From positions 2,756-66,755 of the forward strand of contig CASDXP010000005.1 of assembly GCA_949285455.1 (NCBI GenBank): DNA of 64,000 nucleotides, written 5' to 3'. The DNA is from an uncultured bacterium. Its GTDB lineage: Bacteria > Bacillota_I > Bacilli_A > RFN20 > CAG-826. Positions 15,835 through 62,481 of the stretch are shown here, in pieces (position 1 is the first letter of the stretch; each line of letters opens with the position of its first letter). Position numbers and translations under genes: made by a program. Under the pieces are notes generated by a model. That model was not told the origin of the DNA. It saw only the letters and a list, made by a program, of their open reading frames with translations, and did not search any database.

Positions 15835-16542
15835 ATGAAAAGATTAGTGTTGTTTTTAACTTTATTGCTTCCGCTTGCTGGGTGCGAAAACCAAGATCCG
15901 AATCTAGATTATTTATTTGCTTATTATGATGCAATGGCGCATTTAGGTGATGTTGAAGGTGCGTTAGATTTAGATAATAAACAAAGTTTAGTAAATGTTT
16001 CTTCTATTTACACTTTTTCTGATGGCTCACCTGAAGCGCACATTAGACAAGATTATGATTTAGATAATTATTATTATCATGAACTTACCACACAAGGTGA
16101 TTCGTTCATGGAAGTGTGGTTATATAAGAAAAACGAATTAGACATATTGTTCGTCATAAAGACTGATTACGGTCTTAATCGCTACTTCATTAAAGAATGT
16201 TCTAGTGAAGAAGAATTCAATCAAATGTTTGAAAAATATTCTATTAGATATATTCCCTTGATGCTTAGAGATTACGCTAATTATTCTTATGACAAAATTT
16301 ACGAAGTAAGAGAACTTCTAAACAATGAAACAGGTGTTTCTTTTAATAAAGATACGAAACATATTGGTATCAACTATACGTCTTACTCCTATGATTGGCT
16401 ATTTAATGAATTTGGTTTAATGTCTCAATCTTATAGTTGTGAAGAATATAGTTATGAACAAACATTTACTTTTGAAACTTTTGAACAAGTAGAAGCGGAT
16501 TATTCTAATTGTACTGATATAGGAGGGGTATTCTATGATTAA
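15835..16542 (+). CDS. Putative lipoprotein (lipobox LPLAGC)
   Basis: ORF track starts at 15799. ATG at 15835 (MKRLVLFLTLLLPLAGC) follows directly after the upstream stop and gives a canonical lipoprotein signal. Asp/Tyr-rich. Confidence 0.45.
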   Translation: MKRLVLFLTLLLPLAGCENQDPNLDYLFAYYDAMAHLGDVEGALDLDNKQSLVNVSSIYTFSDGSPEAHIRQDYDLDNYYYHELTTQGDSFMEVWLYKKNELDILFVIKTDYGLNRYFIKECSSEEEFNQMFEKYSIRYIPLMLRDYANYSYDKIYEVRELLNNETGVSFNKDTKHIGINYTSYSYDWLFNEFGLMSQSYSCEEYSYEQTFTFETFEQVEADYSNCTDIGGVFYD

Positions 16543-18172
16543 ATTAAAATTTTTATTATGCCCCATCATTTTGCTTAGCCTCATCGGCTGTTCAAATGAA
16601 GATGTGATGAATTTACCTTCTAATATCATAATAGATGAAGGGCAATCGACGATGTACTTAGAAATTGGCGATGCACAAAGATTGAAATGCTATAACGGAG
16701 AAAAAACGATAGACGATATTTCTTGGCATTCATCAAATTATAATGTTGTAAGCGTCGATATTTTTGGTAATATCGAAGCTTTGCATAAAGGAAAAGCCAC
16801 CATTACAGCTTCTACAGAAGGAAGAGATGAACATAATAATAAAACGACACTGGAAACAAAATTACAGATAGTTGTCAATCCATCTTATAATGACATTTTA
16901 GATGAACTCACTAACGACTTAGCGTTTTCCGCAGTTGTAAGAAAAAAAGGTAACAATGCTTCTTACGATGAACGATATTACATTGATACTTACTACTACA
17001 ATCGCGATTATAAGCAATATCATAGACAAGTTTCAAGAGTAAGTTTTTACACTTTATTACGAGACGGAATTTCTTCTTTGAACTATGTTTTTCTCGACGA
17101 ATTTTCTTCTTTCTTCGCAGATGAAAATGGCTATGCAATTACTAATTATTTAGATAGCAATAACGTCTTACATAATGATGTTATTTTAGATGAATTAGGA
17201 AACCCTATCATCTTTGATGAGGTGGCCATCTCACCATTTAAATATCTTAGTTCTGCTAATTTGTATTTTGCTGACGATTATACATTGAAGCTACTAGATT
17301 CAAACGAAAATAAAGTTAATTTTTTCAATGCCATTTATAATTGCAATATTGCTCTTGTTTCAGACATTGTTATTACCTACGATGATTTAGGCTTTCTTGA
17401 TACTTTATATTGTAATGGTGTGACGCTTGATTTGGCTGAATTTGAAATGTTAGGTACATTTACTTCTAGGCACCAGACAGGGGCTCCACGTAGGATTAGT
17501 GAGCCGGTTGAAGAAGAACTTGTCGCATTTTCTGAAGATCAAGAAATAGCGGTTCCAGCCATGTTAGAAGCTTTAAGAAATAAAAATTACACTATTGACA
17601 TCGAAGTGATAGGAGAAGGTGGAGACATCAATCATCAAATGAAAGTTACGCCTGATGGCATTGAAATATTAAAAAATCTTAGCATAGCGGGTAATCCAGA
17701 AACGATTGAAACTTACGCTCAAATAGATGATTTAGGTTTGATGCCAGTAGAAGTCGTTAATGAAAACAATGTCACTTATCTACAAGGTTTAAGCAATGAA
17801 AGTATTGCAAGTGACATCTACACTCTTAATCCAGTTGATTTTAATTCAAATTTATTTTTCTATCGTTATTCAGCCTATACGACAGAAGGTGGCCTTTATG
17901 GTGGTTTAGATAAGGCGAGTGGTCGCTTATTAGGTTTAGATCCACTTTATCCATTCTTCGATGAAGAAAGTAAGATTATCGATATTAATAAAGTTGCTTT
18001 TAATATTAGATTAAATTACGACTATGAGATGGAATATTTTCAATTATTCTACGCGAGTGGGGATGAATATGGTCTTAGTTCGACCGCTAGAAACGTCGGT
18101 TTAAAAATATATAATATTGGAACGACTTCTTTCTCATATAATGGTGCAACTTTTGTCCCTTTTAGTGAATGA
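16535..18172 (+). CDS. Surface lipoprotein with Big_2 (bacterial Ig-like) domain; paralog of 39661..42237
   Basis: 545-aa ORF. Lipobox LIGCSN. Big_2 signature ..ISWHSSNYNVVSVDIFGNIEALHKGKATITAST.. C-terminal region shares NPVDF..NLF, LLGLDP and ITNIGTT motifs with the 858-aa lipoprotein at 39661. Confidence 0.55.
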   Translation: MIKLKFLLCPIILLSLIGCSNEDVMNLPSNIIIDEGQSTMYLEIGDAQRLKCYNGEKTIDDISWHSSNYNVVSVDIFGNIEALHKGKATITASTEGRDEHNNKTTLETKLQIVVNPSYNDILDELTNDLAFSAVVRKKGNNASYDERYYIDTYYYNRDYKQYHRQVSRVSFYTLLRDGISSLNYVFLDEFSSFFADENGYAITNYLDSNNVLHNDVILDELGNPIIFDEVAISPFKYLSSANLYFADDYTLKLLDSNENKVNFFNAIYNCNIALVSDIVITYDDLGFLDTLYCNGVTLDLAEFEMLGTFTSRHQTGAPRRISEPVEEELVAFSEDQEIAVPAMLEALRNKNYTIDIEVIGEGGDINHQMKVTPDGIEILKNLSIAGNPETIETYAQIDDLGLMPVEVVNENNVTYLQGLSNESIASDIYTLNPVDFNSNLFFYRYSAYTTEGGLYGGLDKASGRLLGLDPLYPFFDEESKIIDINKVAFNIRLNYDYEMEYFQLFYASGDEYGLSSTARNVGLKIYNIGTTSFSYNGATFVPFSE

Positions 18173-25235: not shown

Positions 25236-25829
25236 ATGATTGTTACAGTTAATATTTTAAAAAATAAATATCAAAATTATCGAAATGTATTAGATAAGAT
25301 TAAAAGAGAAGTAGATAATGGCACTTTAATACGCATTAAAAATGGCTTATATGAAACCGATAGAAATGTTGAACCATATTACCTTGCTTCTTCTATCGTT
25401 TCTCGTTCTTATCTAAGTTTTGAATGGGCTTTATCTATCTATGGTCTTATCCCTGAAAGAGTCTATACATTTACTTCAGCTTCTTATAACCTAAGAAAAA
25501 ATAAAACGTATGTTAATTACTTCGGCTGTTTTGAATTTTATGATGTACCTAAAAATATTTTTTATGAAGGAGTGAATTCTTATCTAGAAAAAGGTTACAT
25601 TTACAAAATTGCTACAAAAGAGAAAGCTATTTGTGATTGTTTGGCTAAGTGGCCAGTTGTCCATTCTATTAAACAACTTAAAATTTTATTGTTCGAAGAT
25701 AAAAGAATTTATGAAAACGAATTTAATAAATGTGATTTTAAAGCAATGTCGAACCTTGCAAGTTTGTATCATAAGACAAATTTAAAACTTTTAGTTGAAT
25801 TAATAAATAAGGAGTATTTATATGCCTAA
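25236..25829 (+). CDS. abiEi: AbiEi-family antitoxin/transcriptional regulator (type IV TA/abortive infection)
   Basis: 197-aa ORF. 8-nt overlap with the downstream nucleotidyltransferase gene. Sequence pattern ..IKNGLYET..YLSFEWALSIYGL.. is shared with the second copy at 57070. Confidence 0.65.
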   Translation: MIVTVNILKNKYQNYRNVLDKIKREVDNGTLIRIKNGLYETDRNVEPYYLASSIVSRSYLSFEWALSIYGLIPERVYTFTSASYNLRKNKTYVNYFGCFEFYDVPKNIFYEGVNSYLEKGYIYKIATKEKAICDCLAKWPVVHSIKQLKILLFEDKRIYENEFNKCDFKAMSNLASLYHKTNLKLLVELINKEYLYA

Positions 25830-26688
25830 CACACTTGAATTAATGCTTGCAAAATACGATTTAAAATCTCAATTAGACAAAGAAAACGCTATTAAGGAAA
25901 TAATGCAAGAAATTGCTTTAGCAGGCTTAGCAAACACTAATTTTTTCACTAAAGCGGCATTTTATGGAGGAACTTGTCTTCGCATTTTCTACGGTTTAGA
26001 TCGATTTAGCGAAGATTTAGATTTTGCACTTTTAAATAAAGATGAAAATTTCGATTTATCAAATTATTTCGAACCATTAAAAAATGAATTTAACATGTAT
26101 GGTATTAATCTAGATATTGAATATATAACGAAGAAAAATAGTGATGTGGAAAGTGCTTTTATTAGTGCGAATACGGCGACTCTTATGCTTCATTTTTATC
26201 ACGATAATAGCGAAGTAAAAAGTATCATCCATAATCAAAAAATTAAAATTAAATTTGAAATAGATATGAATAATCCACCTGGTGGTAAAGTAGAATTTAG
26301 ATATCAAACTCTACCGGAACCTTACGAAATTCAAATATTCGATGAATCTAGTTTATTTGCAGGAAAGATACATGCTATTTTATGTCGTAATTATCTTCAT
26401 CGTGTGAAAGGGCGCGATTATTTTGATTATCTATTTTTTATTTCTAGTGGCACGAAATTTAATCTTAAATATTTAGAAAATAAACTAAAAAATACTGGCG
26501 GGATAATCGATTCAAAAGAAGCGTTAACTTTAGATAAAGTGAAAGAACTTCTTTACGCCAAGTTTAGCCATGTCGATTATCCTTTAATGGTTGAAGATGT
26601 GTCTAAATTTATTCCTAATAAAGAACAATTGAAAACTTATAAAAAAGAATTATTTTTATCTACCTTAAATAAATTGGAATGCACGTAA
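25822..26688 (+). CDS. abiEii: AbiEii-family nucleotidyltransferase toxin (DUF1814)
   Basis: 288-aa ORF. Nucleotidyltransferase motif GGTCLRIFYGLDRFSEDLDF (GS/GG..DxD). Translationally coupled to abiEi. Confidence 0.7.
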   Translation: MPNTLELMLAKYDLKSQLDKENAIKEIMQEIALAGLANTNFFTKAAFYGGTCLRIFYGLDRFSEDLDFALLNKDENFDLSNYFEPLKNEFNMYGINLDIEYITKKNSDVESAFISANTATLMLHFYHDNSEVKSIIHNQKIKIKFEIDMNNPPGGKVEFRYQTLPEPYEIQIFDESSLFAGKIHAILCRNYLHRVKGRDYFDYLFFISSGTKFNLKYLENKLKNTGGIIDSKEALTLDKVKELLYAKFSHVDYPLMVEDVSKFIPNKEQLKTYKKELFLSTLNKLECT

Positions 26689-28066: not shown

Positions 28067-29248
28067 ATGTTATTACAATTTTCAACGGTGAATTTTAAAT
28101 CATTTAAAAACGAAGTAACTTTAAATTTGGTAGCTAACAATTTTAAAGAACACGAAGAACGCATTATTTATTTTAATAATGAAAGAGTGCTGCCTCTCGT
28201 CGGTGTTTTTGGTGCGAATGCTTCAGGTAAAAGCAATTTATTAGAAGCTTTTTTCTTCGCTGTCAATTTGATAAGAAATTCTTTATCTTCTCAAACATCA
28301 GAAGAACTTTTTAATATAAAGCCTTTCATGTTTGATGATTCTAAAGATAATTCGCCTTCATCCTTCGATTTTATTTTTGTTAAAGATGGGGTGAAATATG
28401 AATATGGTTTTGCTATTGATAAGAAGTGTGTTATTGAAGAATATTTATATGTATATAAAAGCCAAAAACCATCTTTAGTTTTTGAAAGAAAAAATGTCAA
28501 TGAATATCATTTTAGAGATTATGCTCGTCACGAATTATCGCCGATTGTGTCAAGAACTCTGCCTAATAAATTGTTTTTATCGGTCGCCGCAAATTTCAAC
28601 GCCAAACTTGTCAAAGCTTGTTTTGATTGGTTTAAGAACGATATCAATTTCTATTTTGAACAAGCGATTGAGGAAAAGGCAATTCTAGATGCTATTAAAG
28701 ATGAAAAGATGAATAAATTTATCGCTGATTTTTTAAATCACGCTGATATCAATATATCAAATATTAAATGGCAAATTGCTAAAATAAATAATCAACAAAA
28801 GATTAATTTTAAGACCATGCATCTCATCAGAGCTAATGGGGAATTAAAAGAGTTTTCCTTAGATATAAAAGATGAATCACACGGCACACAAAAATTGCTT
28901 TCATACGCGCCTTTGTTTTATAAAGCGCTAAACTTTGGCGGAGTGGTCGTCATCGATGAGATAGATAATGCTATCCACGTTGAGCTCATGAAATACATCA
29001 TCTCGTTATTTAACGACCCGTTAATAAACAAAACCTCTGCCCAACTTATTTTCAACGCTCAAAATGCCCTCTTGTTAGATTTAGATATTATGCGTCGTGA
29101 TCAAATTTGTTTTGTCGAAAAAAACTTCCTTACTGGTGTTTCTTCTCTTTATTCGCTCGATGAATTTAAGGTGCGCCTGGATGATAAAGTACTAAAAAAA
29201 TATCTAGAAGGAAGATATGGAGCATTACCGAACATCATTTATGAATGA
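28067..29248 (+). CDS. AAA_15/AAA_21-type ATPase (AbiLi/RloA-like abortive-infection ATPase)
   Basis: 393-aa ORF. Walker A GANASGKSNLLEA. Walker B VVIDEIDNAIH. ABC/SMC-like architecture. Stop overlaps the downstream start (ATGAATGA). Confidence 0.6.
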   Translation: MLLQFSTVNFKSFKNEVTLNLVANNFKEHEERIIYFNNERVLPLVGVFGANASGKSNLLEAFFFAVNLIRNSLSSQTSEELFNIKPFMFDDSKDNSPSSFDFIFVKDGVKYEYGFAIDKKCVIEEYLYVYKSQKPSLVFERKNVNEYHFRDYARHELSPIVSRTLPNKLFLSVAANFNAKLVKACFDWFKNDINFYFEQAIEEKAILDAIKDEKMNKFIADFLNHADINISNIKWQIAKINNQQKINFKTMHLIRANGELKEFSLDIKDESHGTQKLLSYAPLFYKALNFGGVVVIDEIDNAIHVELMKYIISLFNDPLINKTSAQLIFNAQNALLLDLDIMRRDQICFVEKNFLTGVSSLYSLDEFKVRLDDKVLKKYLEGRYGALPNIIYE

Positions 29249-29864
29249 AATTATAGTTGGACAAAAGAGGCGAAAATTAAATTCTCGTCTCGATAAAAAA
29301 CTTATCCTCCTAGGTGTAGAAGGAAAAAATAGCACCGAAGCGTCCTATTTTCTTAATTTTAATCGCCTGCAAAATACTTATCGTATCAAAATCGCTAAGG
29401 GGCGAGATACGCATCTATTAAGTATAATAGATGAATTAAATTTGTGCCGTAAAGACACCGATTTTAAAAAAGGAGATTTAATGTATTGTATTTTCGACTT
29501 AGATAATGATCCATATAAAATAAAAGTAGCGGATGAGTTGATAAAAAAATATCGTAAGCAAGACATTATTTTTCTTTATTCTAATCCTTGTTTTGAATTA
29601 TTTTTTCTTTGGCATTTTATTTATTCGACGAAGCCTTATTCAAATAGTCGTAAAGTTATTACTGATTTAAAAAAACACATGCCATATTACGAAAAGAACA
29701 TTAATTGTTTTCACTCATTATTTTCTAAAATTGAAATAGGGATTAGAAACAGTGAAAACATAATGTTTTATCATAGTAGGCATAAACAGTTTGGTATTTA
29801 TTTAAATCCAGTAACTAAAGTTCATGTATTAGTAAAATTATTATTTTCTTTTATACAACGTTAA
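29241..29864 (+). CDS. RloB-like (TOPRIM-like) protein, AbiLii-like partner of the upstream ATPase
   Basis: N-terminal LILLGVEGKNSTEASYF matches the RloB signature (..CEGxKTExxYF). ATG 29241 overlaps the ATPase stop. The ORF track start at 29217 is also possible. Confidence 0.55.
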   Translation: MNEIIVGQKRRKLNSRLDKKLILLGVEGKNSTEASYFLNFNRLQNTYRIKIAKGRDTHLLSIIDELNLCRKDTDFKKGDLMYCIFDLDNDPYKIKVADELIKKYRKQDIIFLYSNPCFELFFLWHFIYSTKPYSNSRKVITDLKKHMPYYEKNINCFHSLFSKIEIGIRNSENIMFYHSRHKQFGIYLNPVTKVHVLVKLLFSFIQR

Positions 29865-30741: not shown

Positions 30742-31299
30742 CTATAACGTCAAAGTAAAAACAAAAGCAAATATAATTGCGTTAAGCGACGCTAAAATTG
30801 AATAAATTTCGATAGGAATACTTTTAATTTTTTCTTCATTTTGTTCTTTTTCCTCATTTTCTTCTTCATCACTTTCAATCGATTCTAAAGGTTTAGAAAT
30901 AGTTCGCCCTCTTCTTTTAAAATGTTTCATTCTTGTTTGCTGATATAAATATCTTGCTAGCCAAATTATCGTTACCGTAACAAAAAGCAAAACTATAAAA
31001 CTTGGAATATCTAGTGGTTCGTTGATATCAAGATTTAATTTGTAAGTATATTCAACGTAAGCAAAAAGGATGATATCTATGATTAAAATTATGATAGAAA
31101 TGGGAAGCATATAGGTATATTCTCTTTTAGTCATTTTCTTTCTAATTTGATCTTTAGTTAACGCTCCTACTTTATTATCGATATGAAGCCATTTCTTCTT
31201 AAATATTTCTATCAATATAGAGGGATATAAAATCTGAAATAAACTTAATCCTATAATTGCGTATAAATATGAATACATTGATGATTGCCTACCCTTCAA
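30742..31299 (-). CDS. Small polytopic membrane protein, paralog of 31303..31848 (orphan immunity-protein candidate)
   Basis: 185-aa ORF, 3-4 predicted TM helices. N-terminal ~55 aa are closely similar to the neighbouring gene, then diverge. Acidic C-terminal tail. Confidence 0.4.
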   Translation of the reverse strand: MKGRQSSMYSYLYAIIGLSLFQILYPSILIEIFKKKWLHIDNKVGALTKDQIRKKMTKREYTYMLPISIIILIIDIILFAYVEYTYKLNLDINEPLDIPSFIVLLFVTVTIIWLARYLYQQTRMKHFKRRGRTISKPLESIESDEEENEEKEQNEEKIKSIPIEIYSILASLNAIIFAFVFTLTL

Positions 31300-31302
31300 C
31301 GA

Positions 31303-31848
31303 TTAATACAATATTAGAATTGGTATGAGGATGAAACTATTGAACAAAATAATTGAAGTATATAGTGTCATTGCAGCATTTTTGCCTGATTCATTCAAAA
31401 CCCATTTCATTCTTTTCCATCTCTCTCGTGCAGTATGCCGCCCATGGGCTAAATAACCCCCATCGACGGCTTTTATATTTCTTCCAAATATTTTTTTTCT
31501 TGCTTCGTAATAAACGTCAATAATTGCAGAAGCAAGAACAGCAAAGACAAAAAGCAATATTATTATGGAAGCAGCTACTATTAATGGCTTATCCATTGTA
31601 ATTGTGTATTGAAAAGCACAAAAACAATAAATTAGAAGAGTAGCGTTTATTATTAGAATTGGCAAAGAAACTAGAGTTAGAAAAATATGTTCCCTTTTTC
31701 CCATTTTATTTCTTACTTCTCTTTTAGATAAAGTTCCATTTTCATTATCGATATGGAACCATCGTTTTTTAAAAATAGTTATCAACAAAATGGGGAATAA
31801 AATTAGAAATAAACTTAACCCTATAATTGTATATAAATATGGATACAT
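31303..31848 (-). CDS. Small polytopic membrane protein immediately downstream of the RHS toxin gene (cognate immunity-protein candidate)
   Basis: 181-aa ORF beginning 22 nt after the RHS stop on the same strand. Hydrophobic helices. Confidence 0.4.
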   Translation of the reverse strand: MYPYLYTIIGLSLFLILFPILLITIFKKRWFHIDNENGTLSKREVRNKMGKREHIFLTLVSLPILIINATLLIYCFCAFQYTITMDKPLIVAASIIILLFVFAVLASAIIDVYYEARKKIFGRNIKAVDGGYLAHGRHTARERWKRMKWVLNESGKNAAMTLYTSIILFNSFILIPILILY

Positions 31849-31869: not shown

Positions 31870-34800
31870 TTAATTTTTATTATTTTCTATTATTCCATAC
31901 ATTGATGAATTAAGGAAATCGCTTATTAAATTTTCGAATTTGTCTGAAATTATTTCTAGAAATTTAGGAGTTATAGATGTGCCTAACCTTGCTATTAGCC
32001 TCCCAAATATTTTATCCATTCCATTAGTGAGCTCTCCAAATATGTTAGTACTTATTCCGCTTACAACTCCGTTCATAAAAGAAGTAAAGAGATCCATATC
32101 AGTACCATACGTTAAAAAATCAGTAACTATTGAACCAATAATTTCGCCTGCAAAGGTAGCAACCACATCTACAATAAGCCTGGTGATTTTATAATATATA
32201 TGATTCAAACTAACAGCAGCAAATAATCCGCTTATAAATCCGCTTACAAATGCACCTAAATATTCTTGCCATGATGACCATTTCCATCTAGAAAAATCTA
32301 ATTGGTAATTGATTAGGTTCATTATGATATCTGTGACAAATAATGTAGCGACGCTTATTGCTGCAAATATTATTCCATATAGTAGTGCGGTTAATATCCA
32401 AATCCTTCCGCTTGAATCAACGTACTTAATAGGATTGTTTCTACAATAGATGTATAAATTTAAACCATTAAGTTGAGTTTTAGTTTCATCTAAGATTGAT
32501 AATTCATCACGTGAAATAAATCTAGCGAAGAAGGGACTATAATATCTTGCATTTAGATAATATAAATTAGATTCAGCGTCATAATAATAACTACGATATC
32601 TAAATGGGTTAATATTACCTATATTTTCTGAAGTGTGATTAATAACCTCGTGATTACCAAAAGCATCATATTCATAACTTGCAACTAGAGTTAAATCATC
32701 TTGCTTATAAATGTTTATAATGTCACCAAAAATATTTTTCTCATAAATGTAACTAGTGCCATTATGAGTAAAACCTATTAACGATTTATTCAAGTAATGG
32801 TATTCAATATCTTTCGAACTAGATTTTTCTCTTAAAATAAGATTATTTGATAAATAATATGTTGTTTTTTCACCATTTATTGTTTTTGAAGTTCTAATAC
32901 CGTTTAAATTATAAGTGTAACTAACATTATCAAAATTAATTAAATGCGATTCATTATTCCAAACGAAGGTATGATTATCATATGAAGTAAGTCTTCCTAA
33001 GGCATCGAAAGTTACATCTTTATCATTGACTCTTCTTAAGATATCTTTATTTGATGAAACGTTATAATAGAAGTTATCTACATGCGTGGAATCTAATAAT
33101 ATTTCATCTTCGTGAGTGTAATCATAAGTTGTTCTATTAACTAAATTACCATTTGCATCATAACTATACGTTATCGTTTTATTTAGTTCTTTATTATCTT
33201 CTCTAATTAAACGATCAACTTTATCGTATTTATAATAAGTATTACCAATATCACTTTTTACTTTGGTGACGTTAAGAAGTTTATCGTAATCGTAAGAATA
33301 ACGATGATAAACATTACTTCCAATAATATTTTCTAGCAATTTAATATTTGTAAGAGTCTTTTTGTCAGTGGTGAAATAATTTAAATTCTGTCTTAATAAA
33401 ACATTAGAATTAGTGTCCTTTATTTCGTTATATGTAAGACGACCAAAAACATCAGATTTTAAATTCGCTAAATAGTTAGATGAAGTGATAGAAGTTAATC
33501 TTAAGGTTTTACTATCATAAGAATAACTAGAAGATATAGTCTTATCGCCTAGATTGATACTTTCACTATCCAAACAATTTTTATTAGCGAAAGAATAAGT
33601 GTGAATAACATTAAGTTCATCGTAAGCATCAATTTCTTTAGTTAATCTATCGTAATCATCGTAAGTATATGAAATCGATTCTTCACCTTTTTCAATTTTT
33701 ATCAATCTTTTCTTATCATCATAAGTATAGTTAATAGTGGAATTATCGCTTCTCGTCGATTTTATTAAATTACTATCTTTATCATAAATTGAAGAAATCG
33801 TGTAGTTTAACGGACTAATCGTAGTGACTATCTTTTCCCCGTTAGTGACTAAATCGTCGCTGTAATTGCTAGTGTAGGCAAATGAATATAAAGACGATTC
33901 TCCAATTTTTATGTGGGTTTTACGGTGCTTATAATCATAAGAATAAGTATAAATTATTCCATCTTGCTCCATGGAAGTTAATAAATCCGATGTATAGTTA
34001 AATTTGATTGGATTAATTAAACCATCATCGTTATAAGAAAGATCCACTAGTTTTTGTGAATAGATATCGTAGCCTAATGATAATGTAGAATTATTTGGCC
34101 CGATGATAGTAGTAGGATATCTTGAATTAGAAAGATAATTAATCTGATAATCATCCTCATTTGTGAGTCTTCCTAATTCATCATAAACACTAGTTTTTTC
34201 TTGTTTTAAAGAAGGGGAATCTAAATTATATTGATAAGTTTTGTTCTTAAAACCTAATTCATCATAATTTATTTCTTTAACGTTATTTAAATTATCTATC
34301 GTACGAATTAATCGATTGTAATTATCGTAATCGTATTTCTTTTGAGCTGTAACACCGTAGATATCGTTAGAGACTTCCCTTACCAGATTTGAGTTTCTAT
34401 ATTCGTAATCTATTACGTTAGATGGGCTTAATTTTCTTAGTAAATGTAAGTCGTCATCATAAATATTAATTTCACCAATGACTTCATAAATTTTCACTTC
34501 TAAGTTAGTAAAGAAAGAAGAAGGAATTTCTAAATCAGAAGTAATTTTGATCGTTACCTTACTAACTAAATTATTGAAGAAAACCGGAATAGCTATTTGA
34601 GGGGTGATTCTATCGTAATGAATAGTGTAACTCGCTAGGTCGCCGGTCGCTATTATTTCAATCGATAATTCATTTTCATTATTGATATCAAAATTTGTTA
34701 TATTTGAAAAATCTATGATCGTGGCGGCAAGCAAATATTTTTTTGCAAAATCAATTTCACTTTTTAAAATTTGTAAAGTAAAACTACCATTTGAATAACT

Positions 34801-37800
34801 AACGTTTGTGTAGTTTTTAGTTGCAAGTAAATTTCTTTCTTCATAGCTTACATCGAATACGATATTTCTTTCGTTATAACTTTTATAAGAGGAAGAAGAA
34901 GTGAGCAAATCTAAATCTATGTTTTTTCGATAGATGATGTCACCGTTTTTATTGACGTAAACTGTCGTTTTATTATTGTTTATATTATCTTCAGCGGTAA
35001 TTTCAAAATTGTTCGCATTGACTCCCACATCTTCGATACTAGAATTGTCTACAATTTTATTTGTGATAAGGCCATCTTCAATACGAAGAGTTTTATTCGT
35101 GATATTGTATCCTTTAAATTTCATTTCGCTCCAAATGAAATTAATCTTTTCAGAGTTTGAATTCTCGACGGAGGTAAGATTTTTATAAGTATCGTAGGTA
35201 AATGTTAGTTTTTCCTCGTTTCCTTTATAGCCTTTAAAAATAATTTCATCTTGACCATCGCCTAATGTAAGAAGTCTAGTCATCTTAAATTTAGTTTCGA
35301 TTAGATTAGGATCGATGATGGAAGATAGAAGACCATTTTCATCGTAATTGATAGTAATTGTTTGCACAGATGAAGCAATTTCTACAAGGTTATCGTCGAT
35401 GTATTTAAGAGTTATTTCGTTTTCATTTAAATCGGAAATATAAATTAATCTTCCATAGTAATCAAATCCAAAGATTAAACCCTCTTCGCTTAAAAGGAAA
35501 TCTTGTGCATTATCTTTTTGCGCTAAGACTTCATTAGCCTTCAAAGTTCTATAATAATCGATATCTTTTTTATATCGATCGATTCTTTCTAATATGTCTT
35601 TGATAGAAAGTTTAATCGATTCAATTTGATGATTGTAACTTACGCTTGTGGAATTGAATGAATTAATTTGTGAGGCAGTTATTTGTTCTTCATTATTTAT
35701 CAGTTCACTAAAAACAGAATTCATCGTTTCCATTTGATTAGCGGTTTCTTCTTCCATTTGTTTTAAAGATAATAAGTATTGTTGAGCTTGTTTTGTTAAA
35801 TCTTTTAAAGTCGATTCATATTGTTCAATGGTACTTTCGATAGAAACTATATTTTCATTTTCATAGTAATCAGGTTTAATGTAAGTTTCATCGATATTTT
35901 TTGCATAATAATGATTTAACTCTAACTCGTTCGTAGCAATAGAATAAGCTTCCTTATTGTTAGTATTTAATTTGTAATAATATTTTGGTATGAGCGCAAA
36001 GTATTGTTCTTCTTTTATAGCGATAGAACAATTAATTAAGATAGGATTAACTTTTGTATTAGAGGATTTTAAATAATAACTGCCATTCTTATATTCGACT
36101 TCATTAGGAAAGTAGACAGCATATTGTAAAATTGCCTCATTCTGAGCATAAGTAACATCATTGAAATACATTGATAATAAAGAACGAACTTCGCTTTCAT
36201 CGTCAATTCTCGCCTTTGCTTGACCAATAAAACTAGTAATTTTAATTTGTCCGTTTTCATCTACTACCTTATCAATTGTTTCTAGCGGATCATCGTAAGT
36301 GAAGTGGTGGGTTAGTTTGACTTCTTTTTTCGAAGCCATATTTAAACTGTTCGCAGAGGAAATATAAGTAAGCCCATTAGAACTTATGACTTCGTAAGTT
36401 ACTTCGTGGACGTTACCGTGTCCATCTTTAAATTTATATTTTTGATCGCTATCTAGATAGACACTTTTATTGCTCACTAGATGATAAGAGCCGTCATTAT
36501 TTAAGTAGTACCATTTTTCGTAGAATGTATGAATATTTCCATTTCCATCAATGTAATGAATTTCATTTTGTAGTGCATCGATGTTATTTTGCTTACTTTT
36601 AATTAATCGAGAAGATAAGTTAAAAGCCCAACCTTTTGGAAGCCCCTTAATTTTATCTGCTGCTCTAAATAAATTTCTCGAATCATAATAAAAATTAAGA
36701 TTTACGCTCAATGCGTTAGAAGCGATGCTCGTCAGTGGAATTTCATAATGCAAATTACTTGTATATAAATTAGCCCTAAATGAAGAATTGTGACTAAAAT
36801 TATGCGAGATAATTACATTATTTTTATCATCACCAATACTTTGATATTTTGAAGTTATATTGGGGGTATTCTCACTATCGAAGCTAGTTTCATTAGTGAT
36901 AGCGATAAAAGGATTATTTTCTTTATTGTCAGCGACATATTCTAACGTTAATGTAATTGGTTCAATCGTTACATTTTCTTCTTTACGCTTAACGTCATCG
37001 TTAACGAAAGACGAAATATCGATTCGTAATAAATTATGAGAAGAATTGATAGGAACATTAGCGATGATAGTTTCACCATAAGACACTTTTATGTAATCGA
37101 GATCACTCACATTATCGCTAGCGTCAAATTTGATGTTAATAAACGATAAAAAATGTTCATTGCCTCTATCTTTTAATAATGAGGTAATTTCATCCATGTT
37201 GAGATTAATTTTTGTTAAGTTATTAACGCTATCTATGTAACCGCATATAGTTTTACCAGGATAGACATAATTATCGTTCGAATCTTTTATTTCTATAAGC
37301 GAAACATAGTTATATCTAAAATAAAGTTTAAGATTGACGCTTTGATTGGTGCTTAGATAAGCACTATTTGCTGTAATTATGATAGTTTTAGAAGATGTAA
37401 GATTATTAACTACTTGCACGTCAAAATCTTCACACGATATTTCCCCATCATTAGTCTCTAAATATGGTTCTAATATAAATCCATTATCAGTTCCAAAGAA
37501 ATTAACTTTTTTATCATCAACCTCCATTAATAGCGATGTAACAAAGCCAAGTGAGACTACACTATCACCAGTTTTTAAAGGTATTGTTAACAAGCACCCA
37601 TCGTTCGTAGATATAAGTGTATAGGCGGGACCAGGAATTGTGCCGCTTGTAGTTATTGTAGTTGGTCCATTGAAATAAACTATGGGAGATGGTCTGCTAG
37701 CAGTAGCAGAACTATTAACTCCATAAATTTGTTTATATATAGAGCACGTTAATGAAACAGAATCTTTATTTAAACTAAATGAAAAAGAATTATGTATAGT

Positions 37801-38106
37801 AGAACCATCACTAGCGATATAGGGAGTAGATATTTTTACATTTTTATTCAATGCTGAAATTGTTCGACTTTGTCCAGATAAGTTTTTGGCTAGAAGAAAA
37901 CTATTTTGAATAGGGACAACACTATTAGAAATATTAATAAAAGAAACTGGATGAGTGTATAATTTTATGTCAAGTTCATTAATTTCTTTAGAATAAATAC
38001 TAGATAATGAAAGTTTTAAGTCCTTATTTTTGTAATCGCCCATATAAGGAATATTCGCGTGATTCTTTTTTAAAAAGATGTCTTTAAAATTAAATTTATT
38101 TTGCAT
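31870..38106 (-). CDS. RHS/YD-repeat polymorphic toxin (2078 aa) with hydrophobic C-terminal extension
   Basis: Very long ORF. Many YD repeats (YTYDDKKRL, YTYDDYDRLTKE, YDANGNLVNRTTYDY). Terminal core ends in the ..NNPIKYVDSSGR.. motif, followed by a 177-aa hydrophobic tail. No N-terminal signal peptide seen. Confidence 0.85.
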   Translation of the reverse strand: MQNKFNFKDIFLKKNHANIPYMGDYKNKDLKLSLSSIYSKEINELDIKLYTHPVSFINISNSVVPIQNSFLLAKNLSGQSRTISALNKNVKISTPYIASDGSTIHNSFSFSLNKDSVSLTCSIYKQIYGVNSSATASRPSPIVYFNGPTTITTSGTIPGPAYTLISTNDGCLLTIPLKTGDSVVSLGFVTSLLMEVDDKKVNFFGTDNGFILEPYLETNDGEISCEDFDVQVVNNLTSSKTIIITANSAYLSTNQSVNLKLYFRYNYVSLIEIKDSNDNYVYPGKTICGYIDSVNNLTKINLNMDEITSLLKDRGNEHFLSFINIKFDASDNVSDLDYIKVSYGETIIANVPINSSHNLLRIDISSFVNDDVKRKEENVTIEPITLTLEYVADNKENNPFIAITNETSFDSENTPNITSKYQSIGDDKNNVIISHNFSHNSSFRANLYTSNLHYEIPLTSIASNALSVNLNFYYDSRNLFRAADKIKGLPKGWAFNLSSRLIKSKQNNIDALQNEIHYIDGNGNIHTFYEKWYYLNNDGSYHLVSNKSVYLDSDQKYKFKDGHGNVHEVTYEVISSNGLTYISSANSLNMASKKEVKLTHHFTYDDPLETIDKVVDENGQIKITSFIGQAKARIDDESEVRSLLSMYFNDVTYAQNEAILQYAVYFPNEVEYKNGSYYLKSSNTKVNPILINCSIAIKEEQYFALIPKYYYKLNTNNKEAYSIATNELELNHYYAKNIDETYIKPDYYENENIVSIESTIEQYESTLKDLTKQAQQYLLSLKQMEEETANQMETMNSVFSELINNEEQITASQINSFNSTSVSYNHQIESIKLSIKDILERIDRYKKDIDYYRTLKANEVLAQKDNAQDFLLSEEGLIFGFDYYGRLIYISDLNENEITLKYIDDNLVEIASSVQTITINYDENGLLSSIIDPNLIETKFKMTRLLTLGDGQDEIIFKGYKGNEEKLTFTYDTYKNLTSVENSNSEKINFIWSEMKFKGYNITNKTLRIEDGLITNKIVDNSSIEDVGVNANNFEITAEDNINNNKTTVYVNKNGDIIYRKNIDLDLLTSSSSYKSYNERNIVFDVSYEERNLLATKNYTNVSYSNGSFTLQILKSEIDFAKKYLLAATIIDFSNITNFDINNENELSIEIIATGDLASYTIHYDRITPQIAIPVFFNNLVSKVTIKITSDLEIPSSFFTNLEVKIYEVIGEINIYDDDLHLLRKLSPSNVIDYEYRNSNLVREVSNDIYGVTAQKKYDYDNYNRLIRTIDNLNNVKEINYDELGFKNKTYQYNLDSPSLKQEKTSVYDELGRLTNEDDYQINYLSNSRYPTTIIGPNNSTLSLGYDIYSQKLVDLSYNDDGLINPIKFNYTSDLLTSMEQDGIIYTYSYDYKHRKTHIKIGESSLYSFAYTSNYSDDLVTNGEKIVTTISPLNYTISSIYDKDSNLIKSTRSDNSTINYTYDDKKRLIKIEKGEESISYTYDDYDRLTKEIDAYDELNVIHTYSFANKNCLDSESINLGDKTISSSYSYDSKTLRLTSITSSNYLANLKSDVFGRLTYNEIKDTNSNVLLRQNLNYFTTDKKTLTNIKLLENIIGSNVYHRYSYDYDKLLNVTKVKSDIGNTYYKYDKVDRLIREDNKELNKTITYSYDANGNLVNRTTYDYTHEDEILLDSTHVDNFYYNVSSNKDILRRVNDKDVTFDALGRLTSYDNHTFVWNNESHLINFDNVSYTYNLNGIRTSKTINGEKTTYYLSNNLILREKSSSKDIEYHYLNKSLIGFTHNGTSYIYEKNIFGDIINIYKQDDLTLVASYEYDAFGNHEVINHTSENIGNINPFRYRSYYYDAESNLYYLNARYYSPFFARFISRDELSILDETKTQLNGLNLYIYCRNNPIKYVDSSGRIWILTALLYGIIFAAISVATLFVTDIIMNLINYQLDFSRWKWSSWQEYLGAFVSGFISGLFAAVSLNHIYYKITRLIVDVVATFAGEIIGSIVTDFLTYGTDMDLFTSFMNGVVSGISTNIFGELTNGMDKIFGRLIARLGTSITPKFLEIISDKFENLISDFLNSSMYGIIENNKN

Positions 38107-39660: not shown

Positions 39661-42237
39661 ATGAATTTAAAGAAATTTGTTCTATTACCTCTAGCTGCTT
39701 TAGTTCTTGCTAGCTGTGGTCCTAATGTCGTTCCTCCCGAAGGCATTTCTGTCGCCGCAGCTGAAACGACTTTAGAGATGGGCGATACGATGACTCTCAC
39801 CGCCACTCTTACGCCTGCAGATGCTGAAGCAGATATCACTTGGTCTTCAAGTGACACCGAAGTTGCCACTGTCGATGCGACAGGTACAGTTACAGCTGTT
39901 GGTTTAGGCGAAGTTGAAATTACGGCGACCGTTGTCAGCGATGACATCATTCTCCGCGATTCCGTTACTTTAGCCGTCAATCCTGATGTGGAAGCAGTGC
40001 TTGCAAGTATCGCAACTGAAATTGCTGTTACTGGTACCGCAAGTCTTGTTGCTCCAGGAGGAAGTCTAGGTTCCTTCGCTTTTGATACTTACCTTAACGT
40101 TAACCAAGGTGAAATGCAATTGTATTGGTCTTCCGAAGGTTCCGTCTATAGCTATTTCGCTGATGAAGAAGGTTATCTTGTCGATTACGTTTTAAATAAT
40201 CATAATGAAGTACAAGTAATTTCTTATACTTCTGGTGGTCAACCAGTCCCCGCTGAAAACTACATCACTTATTCCTTCGGCGCGATCACCGCTTCTGAAG
40301 TGGTAGTTACCACTCCAACCCAATTAGATGTCGCAATTGGTGAAGATCATGGTGCAGTAGATTTAGCAGTCGAATTATCTGGTTACATCTGCGACGTCAC
40401 CGATACTGTTACGATCAATCTTAATAAAGATGGTAGCGTTGCATCTCTTACTGTCGTCGGTCACGGTGTAGCTGAACTTACTGGTGGTTCTACTACCGAT
40501 TACGTTAATACAGTTACCGCAACTGTTACGACCAAAGAAGCCATCGGCGCTCCAAATAAAGCTACACCAATGCCAGAATTAACTGGTGATGATGCCGCTA
40601 TTGTCAATTCATTCCTTACCGGTTTAGAAAATGAAAACTACACATTAGACATCGTCGATACTGGTGAAAGTATTGGTGAAGTTGTCGTCACTGACGACGG
40701 CGTCATTGCCGATGGTACAGTTTTTGCTTTAACGACTGATGGTGTCTATGAAGTTACAGTTGATGAAGAAGCTGGTACGATGACTGCTACTAGCGCAGAA
40801 GCTATTGCTGCTGCAGTTTCAGAACTTCTCAATCCAGTTGATTTCTCACCAAACTTATTTATTCCACAAGGTAATAATGTCTATAAATTAGCTGGTGGTT
40901 TAACTGATAATGTATTACTTGGTCTTGATCCAGCCTTAGTCTTCATTGGTGACTATTATTTAATTCCAAGTATCAATTCAGTTGAAATTACTTTAACCGT
41001 CGAAGGTGCGACCGTTACAGGTGCAACTCTCTCTTATACCTATGATTATTATGGATTAGGTTGGATTATGGGTGATTTAGTCATTACTATCACTAATATT
41101 GGTACGACTGCTTTCCCATATGCTGACTTAGAATTCGTCGAATACGTTCCACCAACTGCTTGGAGTGATGTTACTGGTGACGAAAATTGGTATCAAACTG
41201 CTACTGAAGCTTTAGGCGAAGAAGTTGATAACGTTCCATTCATCGTAGCTGATTGGTATGGTTATGCTGACACTGAAGATTCTGAATTTGGTGTTCAAGC
41301 TTCATTTACTTCTCAAACTGACGCTGTTAATTTAGTTAATTCTTATCTTGCTATTCTTGCGGCTGCTGGTTGGACCGATAGTGGCTTAGTAGATCCTTAT
41401 GGTTCCGTTGCCTACACTAATGGAACGAGCGCAATCTATGTTTCCACAGATGCTTGGTCAAGCGGTTATGACTATATCACCGATATTATCTTCTGGTCCG
41501 TCGATAGCTTAGCACCTGCTGTTACTCAGTGGAGTGATCTTGACGCTGCTTGGGCTGAAGGAATTAACACTACTACCGGTGGCGATATCGATACCGTTCC
41601 ATTCACGGACTTAGGTTGGCAATTAATGAGTGGAAACTACGCTATTGGTGGTGTTACTACAGATGTATATGATGCCTCTTACAATGCTTATTATTTAGAA
41701 TATGCACTCACAGAAGCTGGTTGGACGCAAACTGGATTAATTGATCCAGCAACCGAAAATGAAGTGTGGACATTAGAAGGTAATCCAATTGCTGTATCCG
41801 TTTATCTAGTTACAGTTACTATGACAGATGGTAGCACAGGCTACGCCGTCAAAGTTGATTTCCTTGCTGCTAGCAGTTGTGTTATGCCGCCTGCTGCCAC
41901 TTCTTGGTCTGAATATGATGCTGATTTTGCCGCTTCTATGGAAGCAGCAGGAATTGATGTTGATCTTGTTCCATTCTTAGACGCTGAATGGGCATGCGAT
42001 GCATCTACATCTTCCGCTTACGTCTACACTGATCCAACAACCGCACAAGAAATTTATGACGCTTACGTCGCTCTTTTAGAAGAAGCTGGTTGGACCGCTG
42101 CTGGTGAAGCTGATGAAAGCGGCATCACAACCTTCACTAACCCAGATACAAACGTTACAATTGGTGTTCAATTAGACGTTAGAACTACTTCTGTTGCTTA
42201 CGTTAACTTATACTGGGGCACTAGTGCTGCTGAATAA
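39661..42237 (+). CDS. Large Ala/Thr/Gly/Asp-rich surface lipoprotein: Big_2 domain + shared middle domain + three ~100-aa C-terminal repeats
   Basis: 858-aa ORF. Lipobox LASCG. Big_2 signature ..ITWSSSDTEVATVDATGTVTAVGLGEVEITA.. Three repeats of the pattern W-S-D/E...VPF...Y..LE.AGWT..G. Nucleotide composition is visibly more G+C-rich than its surroundings. Confidence 0.6.
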   Translation: MNLKKFVLLPLAALVLASCGPNVVPPEGISVAAAETTLEMGDTMTLTATLTPADAEADITWSSSDTEVATVDATGTVTAVGLGEVEITATVVSDDIILRDSVTLAVNPDVEAVLASIATEIAVTGTASLVAPGGSLGSFAFDTYLNVNQGEMQLYWSSEGSVYSYFADEEGYLVDYVLNNHNEVQVISYTSGGQPVPAENYITYSFGAITASEVVVTTPTQLDVAIGEDHGAVDLAVELSGYICDVTDTVTINLNKDGSVASLTVVGHGVAELTGGSTTDYVNTVTATVTTKEAIGAPNKATPMPELTGDDAAIVNSFLTGLENENYTLDIVDTGESIGEVVVTDDGVIADGTVFALTTDGVYEVTVDEEAGTMTATSAEAIAAAVSELLNPVDFSPNLFIPQGNNVYKLAGGLTDNVLLGLDPALVFIGDYYLIPSINSVEITLTVEGATVTGATLSYTYDYYGLGWIMGDLVITITNIGTTAFPYADLEFVEYVPPTAWSDVTGDENWYQTATEALGEEVDNVPFIVADWYGYADTEDSEFGVQASFTSQTDAVNLVNSYLAILAAAGWTDSGLVDPYGSVAYTNGTSAIYVSTDAWSSGYDYITDIIFWSVDSLAPAVTQWSDLDAAWAEGINTTTGGDIDTVPFTDLGWQLMSGNYAIGGVTTDVYDASYNAYYLEYALTEAGWTQTGLIDPATENEVWTLEGNPIAVSVYLVTVTMTDGSTGYAVKVDFLAASSCVMPPAATSWSEYDADFAASMEAAGIDVDLVPFLDAEWACDASTSSAYVYTDPTTAQEIYDAYVALLEEAGWTAAGEADESGITTFTNPDTNVTIGVQLDVRTTSVAYVNLYWGTSAAE

Positions 42238-60406: not shown

Positions 60407-60558
60407 AGTTATTTAATAATAAATATTAATAGACATATTTTTTTATCTTTGTTCACTAATTCAGTTAGTTTTCTTTTAAACATATAAAATTGCATTTGAC
60501 AATTGCATTATCTTTCATTATCTTATTAGTCAATATTAAAGAAAGGAGGAATACACTC

Positions 60559-62481
60559 ATGTCGAAAACAAAATTAATGTTACTCCCTCTCGCCGCTCTC
60601 GCGTTAGGCGCTTGTGCTCCTGAAACTCCAACTGATTGGACGGAAGAAGATAAAGCGACGATGGTCGAAGTGCTAGGGGAAGGACATTATTTACCCTTCA
60701 TGCATATTCCCGGTTACAATTTAAGCGTCGAAGGCGATCACCTCATCTTATTAGCGAAAGGCACGCAAGAAACGTTAGATTCTTACGCAGTTGTCTTAGA
60801 AGATGCTGGTTACACCTTAGAAGGTGAAAATTACGTCTTACCAATCGAAGAAACTGATACGGCCTTAAATGATATTGTCGTCGCTCTCAGTTTAGAAAAT
60901 GAAATCTTCGAAATTGACGCAAGTGTGGATCCAACTCCTAAATTCGCTTGGACGGCAGAAGATCTAGAAGCGATGGAACTCACTCTTCCTGGTATCGTCT
61001 TACCTGGCATTCAAGAATTTGCAGGTTACGATTATATAGCAGGCGCTTACCAAGATGAAACATCTCCAACTGGTGGTATGTTCCAATTCGTCATCTACTT
61101 AGATCATAATGCGGAAGGCGCTGCCACTGCGCAACAACTTAACAGTTTATATCAAACTGCATTACTTGAAGCATTCCCTGGCGAATTAGAACTTGGCACA
61201 CAATATACGAACGGTAATGAATATCTTTCTCATTACACTTCTACATCTGCTGCTTATACTTCGATGAATTGGACTGTGACGAGTTTCTATCGAAATAACA
61301 CGATGGGCGATGAAACTTATTTCTGTATCCAAGCTGGTGTCACCCAATTCTTACCTTGGGAAGATCCAGACGCGGAAGGTGCAACTGATAACATCGAAGA
61401 AATTAAAGCCTTAAATGAAGATGGCACAGCTGTCCTCGAAGGTGAAGAAGTCGTCATCCGTGGTACTGTTGCTTCCATCAGTGGAAGAAACTTCGTCTTA
61501 AAAGGAAGAAACGATCTTGATACGTCCTTCAACGACGGTATCTTAATTAAAGATCTCGATGCTTCTATCACTATGCCAGAACTTAATACCTTCGTCCGTG
61601 TTACGGCAACTGTTCATACAAGTGAAGGCTTACCATATCTCACCGCAAGTGCAGTTGAACTCATCCAAGAAGATGGACAAAAATTCTATAGTGATTTACT
61701 CTACGTCACCTATAAAGAAGAACTTGTCGACAAAACTTATTATGGTCTTCCAGTGAGTTACATGGGCTACTTCGTCGGCATCGATGCTGGTAGCGTCGTC
61801 GAAGAAGGCGTCGCTGCAACAGTGAGCTTAGCAGCTGATATGACCTACAATGAAGAAACTGGCGAATACTCTTGGGATGAAAGTCAAGTTATGACGCTTT
61901 ATCTCAATCCTGAAAACACTGATGTTAGCGTCCTCATCAATTCACTTAACGTTTACGTCTTAGGTGACGTCGTCACCGTGACGAATGCGATGGTGGATTA
62001 CGATGAAAATGGCGAAGCTAGACTTACCGCTCATGAAGGTACGATCGTTTCACCATATGTCACGCTTGGCACGAAGTGGTCTAAAGATGTCGTCACCTCA
62101 TTATACGATTCTTACGCTGGTTATGGCGAAGGTGCGGCTATGAACCCATTCCCTGCTACGTTACCTGCTAGCATTGCTAATTTGACTGGATTTGAATATC
62201 TCGTCATGGATGGTGCATACATAGATGCCCAATATGGTCAATCTGGCGATCCAAGAGTTATGATTGAAATTCACTCTAATGATATCACCTCTGAAAACGC
62301 TCAAACTTACGTCGATGATTTCGTCGATGCTCTCGAGCTGATTGCTGGTGGTGCAGCATGGATTTATGATAGCGATCGTTATTGGCTCATCGACGCTGAC
62401 GGTCAATCTGTCAATAACATCCAAATGATCGTTGAAGCAGATGCTGGTTATCTCTACGCTCTCTACTTCTTCATGGTCTAA
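60559..62481 (+). CDS. Acidic Ala/Thr/Gly/Glu-rich surface lipoprotein sharing the ~100-aa W..(E/D)D..LPF..AG(W/Y)T repeat module with 39661..42237
   Basis: ATG 60559 after AAAGGAGG. Lipobox LGACAP. Two N-terminal copies of the repeat (TDWTEEDKATM...LPF...LEDAGYTLEG and KFAWTAEDLEAM...LP...). G+C-richer codon usage than neighbouring genes. Confidence 0.55.
   Translation: MSKTKLMLLPLAALALGACAPETPTDWTEEDKATMVEVLGEGHYLPFMHIPGYNLSVEGDHLILLAKGTQETLDSYAVVLEDAGYTLEGENYVLPIEETDTALNDIVVALSLENEIFEIDASVDPTPKFAWTAEDLEAMELTLPGIVLPGIQEFAGYDYIAGAYQDETSPTGGMFQFVIYLDHNAEGAATAQQLNSLYQTALLEAFPGELELGTQYTNGNEYLSHYTSTSAAYTSMNWTVTSFYRNNTMGDETYFCIQAGVTQFLPWEDPDAEGATDNIEEIKALNEDGTAVLEGEEVVIRGTVASISGRNFVLKGRNDLDTSFNDGILIKDLDASITMPELNTFVRVTATVHTSEGLPYLTASAVELIQEDGQKFYSDLLYVTYKEELVDKTYYGLPVSYMGYFVGIDAGSVVEEGVAATVSLAADMTYNEETGEYSWDESQVMTLYLNPENTDVSVLINSLNVYVLGDVVTVTNAMVDYDENGEARLTAHEGTIVSPYVTLGTKWSKDVVTSLYDSYAGYGEGAAMNPFPATLPASIANLTGFEYLVMDGAYIDAQYGQSGDPRVMIEIHSNDITSENAQTYVDDFVDALELIAGGAAWIYDSDRYWLIDADGQSVNNIQMIVEADAGYLYALYFFMV

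Follow-up and report, generated by a model that had tools for sequence, protein, structure and literature searches.

A hydrophobic RHS C-terminal tip and its tandem membrane-protein neighbours: a predicted Tse5-like membrane-depolarising payload with in-membrane immunity

The RHS gene, its C-terminal tip and the downstream genes

The stretch of DNA analyzed here (the window, 64,000 nucleotides of contig CASDXP010000005.1 from an uncultured bacterium) carries on its reverse strand a gene for an RHS/YD-repeat protein, directly followed by two small genes, imm1 and imm2 (Table 1). The C-terminal domain of the RHS protein, hereafter the tip, is considered as a candidate membrane-active toxin, and the two downstream products as its candidate immunity proteins. 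An earlier note, made from the letters of this DNA, had already drawn attention to the hydrophobic character of the tip, and its claims are taken up below where the results bear on them.

When the full-length RHS protein was scanned against Pfam, a match to RHS_repeat (PF05593, E 1.5e-9) was obtained, and in the NCBIfam scan TIGR03696 (Rhs_assc_core) covered residues 1813-1900 over its full model length (E 1.9e-19). RHS shells of known structure in the PDB aligned with residues ~1400-1900. For the N-terminal 900 residues, no PDB or PHROGs match was found and nothing meaningful came out of the Pfam and NCBIfam scans of the whole protein; weak coiled-coil-type matches were seen at residues ~750-870. 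An exact-sequence look-up of the RHS protein returned no match. As the repeats, the core, the two aspartates described below and a variable tip are all present, the open reading frame (ORF) is predicted to encode an RHS/YD polymorphic toxin with a C-terminal cargo, although no recognisable export or delivery module of the Sec, LXG/T7SS, PAAR/VgrG/T6SS or TcB type was detected in it.

Because the Rhs_assc_core match stops at residue 1900, the tip was defined as residues 1902-2078, and the 177 residues that the earlier note had placed after the RHS terminal motif are located exactly there, the stop codon occupying 31870-31872. Upstream of this boundary, both RHS C-terminal autoprotease aspartates, D1867 and D1897 (the latter in NNPIKYVDSSGR), are conserved and match those of the solved Rhs protein 8h8a: in the phmmer alignment, RFISRDELSI of the window pairs with RFIQQDPISI, and YVDSSG with WIDPTG. 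In 8h8b, which bears the same molecule name as 8h8a, this second motif reads WIAPTG, with an alanine in place of the second aspartate, and its chain exceeds that of 8h8a by 250 residues (1402 versus 1152). In Tse5, D1141 and D1164 are needed for the release of the C-terminal domain, which begins at I1169 (PMC9637101). Since D1867 and D1897 are both present, a cut just before I1902 is expected in the window protein.

Four long hydrophobic stretches had been reported in the tip, and this description was borne out, with the precision that two are clearly transmembrane and two marginal. Kyte-Doolittle hydropathy was calculated over all 2078 residues with a 19-residue window and a cut-off of 1.4; the segments exceeding this value were confined to the tip, at tip residues 1-19 (2.32), 48-66 (1.75) and 76-94 (1.84). 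On a Hessa-type insertion scale summed over 19 residues, the four stretches gave -1.8, +1.9, +5.2 and +6.5 kcal/mol. On the same scale, the helices of the adjacent ZIP transporter span -1.5 to +6.7, and no window under 8 was found in RHS residues 1-1901, in ClpB or in SecA. As the sums are within the range of the ZIP helices, all four stretches can be regarded as real, helices 1 and 2 being autonomous transmembrane-type segments and the other two marginal ones that likely depend on packing within a bundle. Beyond them, tip residues 124-139 and 144-176 are amphipathic, with a hydrophobic moment of 0.50-0.55.

Glycine-zipper patterns, defined as (G/A/S)xxxGxxxG or GxxxGxxx(G/S/T), were also scanned. 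The tip contains four matches, distributed on three helices, versus a single one in the 1901-residue core. When the tip was shuffled, the mean number of matches was 0.40 and 0.1% of the shuffles got to four.

Table 1. Features of the RHS locus (positions of the window)
Feature	Position	Strand	Description and basis
RHS/YD-repeat polymorphic toxin gene	31870..38106	-	2078 residues; ORF list, RHS_repeat and Rhs_assc_core matches
RHS core end with autoprotease aspartates	32404..32523	-	D1867 in RFISRDELSIL, D1897 in NNPIKYVDSSGR
C-terminal tip, RHS residues 1902-2078	31873..32403	-	177 residues; helical membrane domain, predicted toxin payload
Helix 1, tip residues 1-23	32335..32403	-	Strongest transmembrane segment; Kyte-Doolittle 2.32, Hessa-type -1.8, AF2 pLDDT 85-89
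Trp/Tyr-rich loop motif DFSRWKWSSWQEY	32260..32298	-	Family signature; W40, S43, W45, Y48 invariant in family alignment
Helix 2, tip residues 48-66	32206..32262	-	Zipper A51-G55-G59; G50 and G59 invariant in family
Helix 3, tip residues 76-94	32122..32178	-	Zipper A82-G86-G90, contains D79 and E87; hydropathy
Helix 4, tip residues 105-123	32035..32091	-	Zipper S108-G112-G116, moderately hydrophobic; insertion sum, motif scan
Two amphipathic C-terminal helices, tip residues 124-177	31873..32034	-	Hydrophobic moment; AF2 helical, low confidence
imm1	31303..31848	-	181 residues, four transmembrane segments, predicted cognate immunity; begins 21 nucleotides past the RHS stop codon
imm2	30742..31278	-	imm1 paralogue (35% identity), four transmembrane segments; start ATG 31278 likely

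The two candidate immunity genes had been described as coding for membrane proteins, which is confirmed by the presence of four hydrophobic segments in each product. The program-made ORF of imm2 begins at TTG 31299 (30742-31299). However, the true start is probably ATG 31278, because the resulting N-terminus is homologous to that of imm1 (MYPYLY versus MYSYLY) and both genes have the same ribosome-binding-like GGTAGGCAATC upstream. The imm protein family comprises 19 clusters and has no Pfam model.

Relatives, alleles and deletion remnants of the locus

Sequence comparison places the tip, as a divergent representative, in an unnamed family that counts about 30 RHS C-terminal domains. A HMMER scan of 1.84 billion representatives yielded nine relatives of the tip, and a profile built from the first relatives retrieved 22 proteins with E down to 6e-61. 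In every match with a complete N-terminus, the domain is found directly after the RHS 'DPxG' motif, and many members are orphan RHS C-terminal ORFs of 180-330 residues. The family consensus starts with a Gly/Ala-rich first helix, SDxxSN and W-x-F-S-(S/N)-W-Q-T-Y, and goes on with GAxxGGAIGG, TGIGMxLE and then more small-residue zippers. The window tip shares 17-28% identity with distant members and keeps the invariant residues D25, N29, W40, S43, W45, Y48 and G59, the N-terminal 65 residues being the most conserved part of the family.

Searches of the tip in Pfam, NCBIfam, PHROGs and the PDB gave no match, the PDB sequence and profile searches returning noise only; neither did a single-sequence word-index search. 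Furthermore, Pfam, scanned with the tip and with 16 relatives, contained no curated model for the family. Sub-threshold matches of helix 1 to the small transmembrane families DUF7396 (E 1e-3) and phrog_3595 (E 3e-3) were treated as compositional. A match to an enzyme family or fold, which the earlier note had named as an outcome that would contradict a membrane-type module, was not found for the tip, and a soluble enzyme was ruled out on this ground together with the hydrophobic composition. Thus, the statement that the tip is not a soluble enzyme stands, whereas the view that a membrane tip is atypical of RHS proteins has to be softened in the light of two precedents, Tse5 (PMC9637101) and Tox-WTIP (PMC3482391).

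The loci of the relatives show the classic rhs layout, in which a full-length RHS gene and an immunity gene are followed by orphan C-terminal cassettes. At L005-7, L008/9 (two copies), L010 and L011, a protein of 150-200 residues with two N-terminal transmembrane helices is encoded directly downstream of each family tip, so that a small membrane protein immediately follows the tip in all five independent contexts. The main RHS protein of L005 bears a different tip and has a soluble protein next to it instead.

Other hydrophobic tips were observed at some of these loci. At L008 (2890-8273), three hydrophobic-tip cassettes stand in series: two family tips, one on an RHS protein of 852 residues and one on an orphan of 281 residues, each followed by a paralogous two-transmembrane protein of 151-153 residues, and a third orphan with a different Gly-rich hydrophobic tip. 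In L003 (1-4700), from a Bacillota metagenome-assembled genome (MAG), an array of orphan RHS C-terminal cassettes carries other Gly-rich hydrophobic tips; a two-transmembrane protein comes after one of them and a lipoprotein-type protein after another. Tips of a hydrophobic nature may be common among the RHS proteins of gut Bacillota.

Two further alleles of the window locus were recovered, in MAG159 (L001/L002) and in L015-17, and identities were calculated with the window as the reference. For MAG159 and L015, respectively, they amount to 84.6% and 96.4% in the RHS core, 53% and 78% in the tip, 52% and 59% in imm1, 77% and 83% in imm2, and 98.5% and 94.8% in ZIP. Among the three alleles, the identities span 85-97% in the RHS core, 94-99% in ZIP, 53-78% in the tip and 52-61% in imm1. 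At the nucleotide level, identity is 95% up to 32441, 43-73% over the tip and 42-82% over imm1, and recovers afterwards; the drop begins at the core/tip junction (32403) and spans the tip and imm1. Within the divergent tip, the Trp-loop (loop 1) forms an island of 95% nucleotide identity and is 96% invariant among the three alleles, while the invariant share is 0% in loop 2 and 26-42% in helices 3 and 4. Variation within imm1 is greatest in helices 2-3 and in the long third loop.

In L012-14, both imm genes are present without the RHS gene. At L012 (8892-8984), 60 nucleotides identical to the 5' leader of the window RHS gene are joined to the last nine tip codons, after which come imm1 and imm2, in a genomic neighbourhood different from that of the window. 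By its sequence, this arrangement is a clean deletion of the RHS gene in which both imm genes were kept behind the leader. A comparable remnant is P0002 (98 residues), where the RHS N-terminus is fused to the last ~50 residues of the tip. The co-divergence of the tip with imm1 and the retention of the imm genes are hallmarks of a toxin/immunity module and not of a structural anchor.

This last point concerns the alternative raised in the earlier note, namely that the tip is a C-terminal membrane anchor by which the RHS shell stays tethered to the membrane of the producer itself. Such a role would be in keeping with helix 1, which is strongly hydrophobic and begins one residue past the core motif, and with an RHS protein devoid of N-terminal signal peptide. 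However, the conservation of the two autoproteolysis aspartates means that shell and tip should be cut apart, which makes a covalent anchor unlikely. Moreover, members of the family are found in orphan cassettes that have paired genes downstream, the diversification of the tip and imm1 is far faster than that of their flanks although an anchor needs no co-diversification with a neighbouring gene, and imm1 and imm2 outlast the deletion of the RHS gene. On these grounds the anchor is disfavoured, and we regard it as very unlikely. The deletion remnants found in other lineages could also evoke a decaying or non-functional tip without current role, but the RHS ORF of 2078-2079 codons is intact in the window as well as in L015, L016, L017 and P0001, the last being the full-length orthologue that matches MAG159, and the family-invariant residues are retained in the tip, which makes decay extremely improbable.

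Predicted fold and proposed mode of action

In order to describe the fold of the tip, AlphaFold2 (AF2) models of two family members were compared. For the window tip, an all-helical model with five helices was obtained from an alignment of 17 sequences, confident for residues 1-65 alone. For the tip of P0016, a canonical member, the model was a four-helix bundle over residues 1-110, with predicted local distance difference test (pLDDT) values of 80-89. The top Foldseek match agrees between both models and is not significant; the folds matched best belong to accessory subunits and carrier components, not to toxins. Taken with their moderate confidence, the AF2 and Foldseek results back a membrane helical bundle and not a soluble enzyme, homology not being implied. 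The same applies to the resemblance of the model to the four-helix membrane fold of Tim17, Tim22, Tim23, OEP16 and NDUFA11 (Foldseek E 0.4 at best); no Pfam Tim17 match was found for the tip, which does not belong to the Tim17/Tim22/Tim23/OEP16 sequence family.

From these data, we consider it fairly probable that the tip is a Tse5-like membrane-depolarising RHS payload whose immunity acts within the membrane. The proposed mechanism is the following. First, by analogy with Tse5, the hydrophobic tip would be enclosed by the RHS shell inside the producer, and the aspartate pair, of which the motifs are conserved, would free it just before I1902. After delivery, helices 1 and 2 would enter the cytoplasmic membrane of the target cell and, with the zipper helices 3 and 4, would pack or oligomerise into an ion-conducting structure, leading to the collapse of the membrane potential. 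The four-transmembrane imm1 protein would shield the producer via helix-helix contact within the membrane, as its co-diversification with the tip suggests. Its tandem paralogue imm2 probably covers other alleles in the population and so probably broadens the protection, by analogy with what is reported for tsaI genes in tandem (PMC9484751).

The ionophore or pore-forming payload put forward in the earlier note is thus supported by comparative evidence. It would account for the membership of the tip in a family of toxin cassettes and for the identity drop over tip and imm1, for the imm genes that outlast the RHS deletion and the membrane proteins directly downstream of the relatives' tips in all five independent contexts, and for the all-helical, membrane-type predicted fold without enzyme match. 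It is also in line with the observation that channel-forming effectors are nearly always neutralised by polytopic membrane proteins (PMC12744356).

Several results weigh against this interpretation. Full-length Pfam and NCBIfam scans and hydropathy revealed no signal peptide, LXG domain (PF04740), PAAR domain or N-terminal hydrophobic segment in the RHS protein, and no secretion gene besides SecA was found among the scanned ORFs of the 64-kb window. The four-transmembrane imm proteins of the window are unrelated to the two-segment proteins located beside the other family members. In the tip itself, helices 3 and 4 are just marginally hydrophobic, and its sequence showed no detectable resemblance to that of a characterised pore former. 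As for the models, the AF2 alignments were shallow (17-18 sequences), the confidence for the window tip is low past residue 65 (mean pLDDT 60.9), and Foldseek returned nothing below E 0.4 against the PDB for either model, the matches being generic helical membrane bundles. Regarding export, P0006, a relative of 1546 residues, likewise shows no obvious signal peptide by eye.

The conservation pattern of the tip may also be read in terms of a bipartite domain, in which helices 1-2 and the Trp loop would form a membrane entry or translocation module and the variable C-terminal helices an effector acting on a non-pore target. The strong conservation of the N-terminal 65 residues, as opposed to a C-terminal half that differs between alleles, would fit with this, as would an RHS tip of L003, which joins a hydrophobic hairpin to a soluble-looking domain and is followed by a gene for a lipoprotein-type protein. 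In addition, the translocation of Tde1, a DNase of the T6SS (type VI secretion system), requires a glycine zipper (PMC10240207). However, the C-terminal part has only ~55-100 residues, is helical and amphipathic, and contains no conserved catalytic-type motif or family match, and the immunity proteins are membrane proteins in all contexts, which points to an action in the membrane. A bipartite tip is therefore judged unlikely.

We attribute a similarly small likelihood to a toxin that would reside in the membrane without forming a pore, and that would either bind and thereby block, or else hijack, one particular membrane protein or lipid carrier in the target cell. Helices 3 and 4 cannot insert unaided because of their polarity, the invariant Trp/Tyr loop could act as a recognition surface, and the non-toxin nature of the best fold matches goes in the same direction. 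Against this, the three zipper helices followed by terminal amphipathic helices resemble characterised depolarising toxins (PMC12744356, PMC9637101), and there is no evident target candidate. The depolarising payload with in-membrane immunity remains the favoured reading.

Known systems, host and significance

The closest functional analogue of the tip and its imm proteins is the Tse5 (PA2684)/Tsi5 pair of P. aeruginosa (PMC9637101, PMC10684867). Tse5-CT is a pore-forming domain, 149 residues long, that combines transmembrane with amphipathic helices, and its immunity protein Tsi5 has two predicted transmembrane regions (PMC9637101). Both systems have in common an RHS shell followed by a hydrophobic C-terminal domain of ~150-180 residues composed of such helices, a releasing aspartate pair, the lack of enzymatic signature and, directly downstream, a gene for an immunity protein that is integral to the membrane. 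On the other hand, the window RHS protein has no PAAR-like N-terminus, VgrG or T6SS context; its host is a low-GC organism, the closest named relative among the matches being a Bacillota MAG; and its immunity proteins, which form a tandem pair, have four predicted transmembrane segments each, versus two in Tsi5. When the family profile was compared with the PDB, no chain scored below E 0.3, and Tse5 was represented among the PDB chains seen by the shell chain 8cp6_B only.

Similar features are found in toxins of low-GC hosts exported via T7SSb, the secretion system of type VIIb. TspA/TsaI, EsxX and TelE (PMC12744356) share with the tip the (G/A/S)xxxGxxxG motif in hydrophobic helices and a polytopic membrane immunity, and tsaI arrays are reported to contain tandem immunity paralogues like imm1/imm2 (PMC9484751). 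In contrast, these toxins sit on LXG domains and leave the cell through T7SSb, whereas the window tip lies inside an RHS shell without LXG; no sequence match of the tip to them was found. The CdiA-CT ionophores and their CdiI partners (PMC11630599) are polymorphic, helical, depolarising C-terminal domains that possess a putative glycine zipper and are paired with immunity proteins of the membrane. They differ from the tip by the CdiB/CdiA two-partner secretion of Enterobacteria and by an N-terminal entry domain using AcrB or other receptors, and the tip gave no sequence match to them.

Tox-WTIP, the sole pore-forming toxin domain of the 2012 polymorphic-toxin catalogue, is RHS-linked (PMC3482391). 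Like the tip, it is a small, hydrophobic, non-catalytic C-terminal domain with a conserved tryptophan. Yet the Tox-WTIP domain, which is confined to Proteobacteria, consists of two helices bearing RxxR and Wx[ST]IP motifs, while the window family has four to six helices and W-x-x-S-x-W-Q-x-Y followed by GGAIGG. No Tox-WTIP model came up when the tip and 16 relatives were scanned against Pfam, and neither motif was seen by eye in the tip. Finally, the tip showed no match to a colicin pore-forming Pfam model and no ten-helix globule. The tip family is thus a new sequence family of a kind already known, that of RHS-borne membrane-active toxins with membrane immunity.

Concerning the host, the window has a GC content of 33%. 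As release factor 2 (RF2, with its SPF motif) is present and TGA serves as the stop in seven of the 36 ORFs, the standard bacterial code (code 11) applies. The three large surface-type proteins checked, encoded at 16535-18172, 39661-42237 and 60490-62481, carry lipoprotein signals (L-A-S-C, I-G-C and G-A-C) and no LPXTG motif, and two of them contain Big_2; a low-GC lineage that is decorated with lipoproteins and possibly poor in cell wall is suggested by this. Promoter and terminator scans of the window remained at or below chance, and a tRNA-His gene was the sole match in the Rfam scan, with no other RNA family.

Two neighbouring gene pairs were also observed. A candidate defence system consisting of an AAA_21 ATPase and RloB (28067-29864) is located between an MBL lipoprotein gene and ZIP. 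It is missing from the syntenic L015-17, and in L002 RloB is split into fragments; next to the RHS locus, the pair resembles a defence islet of variable occurrence. The region 25236-26688 holds a gene for an AbiEii nucleotidyltransferase toxin (25822-26688), which overlaps with an ORF of 197 residues upstream of it; both are conserved in L002 and L015-17. This ORF may encode an AbiEi-like partner, which would give a type IV toxin-antitoxin pair.

In Gram-positive bacteria, the export of RHS proteins has been ascribed to Sec for WapA (PMC12704120) and linked to T7SSb for LrhA (PMC10327511). It is possible, though doubtful, that the tip stands for an undescribed class of RHS-delivered channel formers. 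On the basis of the structural models, these would be Tim17/OEP16-like four-helix glycine-zipper bundles with an invariant interfacial Trp loop, occurring in a low-GC lineage with surface lipoproteins instead of LPXTG proteins, on a carrier without known export signal. If true, a route of RHS release or delivery outside T6SS, Sec/WapA and T7SSb would be implied.

To our knowledge, membrane-active RHS payloads have been documented experimentally in essentially one case, that of Tse5, in a Gram-negative, T6SS setting. A distinct family with the Tse5 logic is now present in low-GC, apparently Bacillota-related metagenome lineages. Its allelic toxin/immunity series and immunity-only remnants provide a ready test system for the storage of hydrophobic toxins in RHS shells, for the specificity of in-membrane immunity and for the exit of an RHS protein without known export signal. 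For genome annotation, the family would warrant one new model for the toxin domain and another for the immunity proteins.

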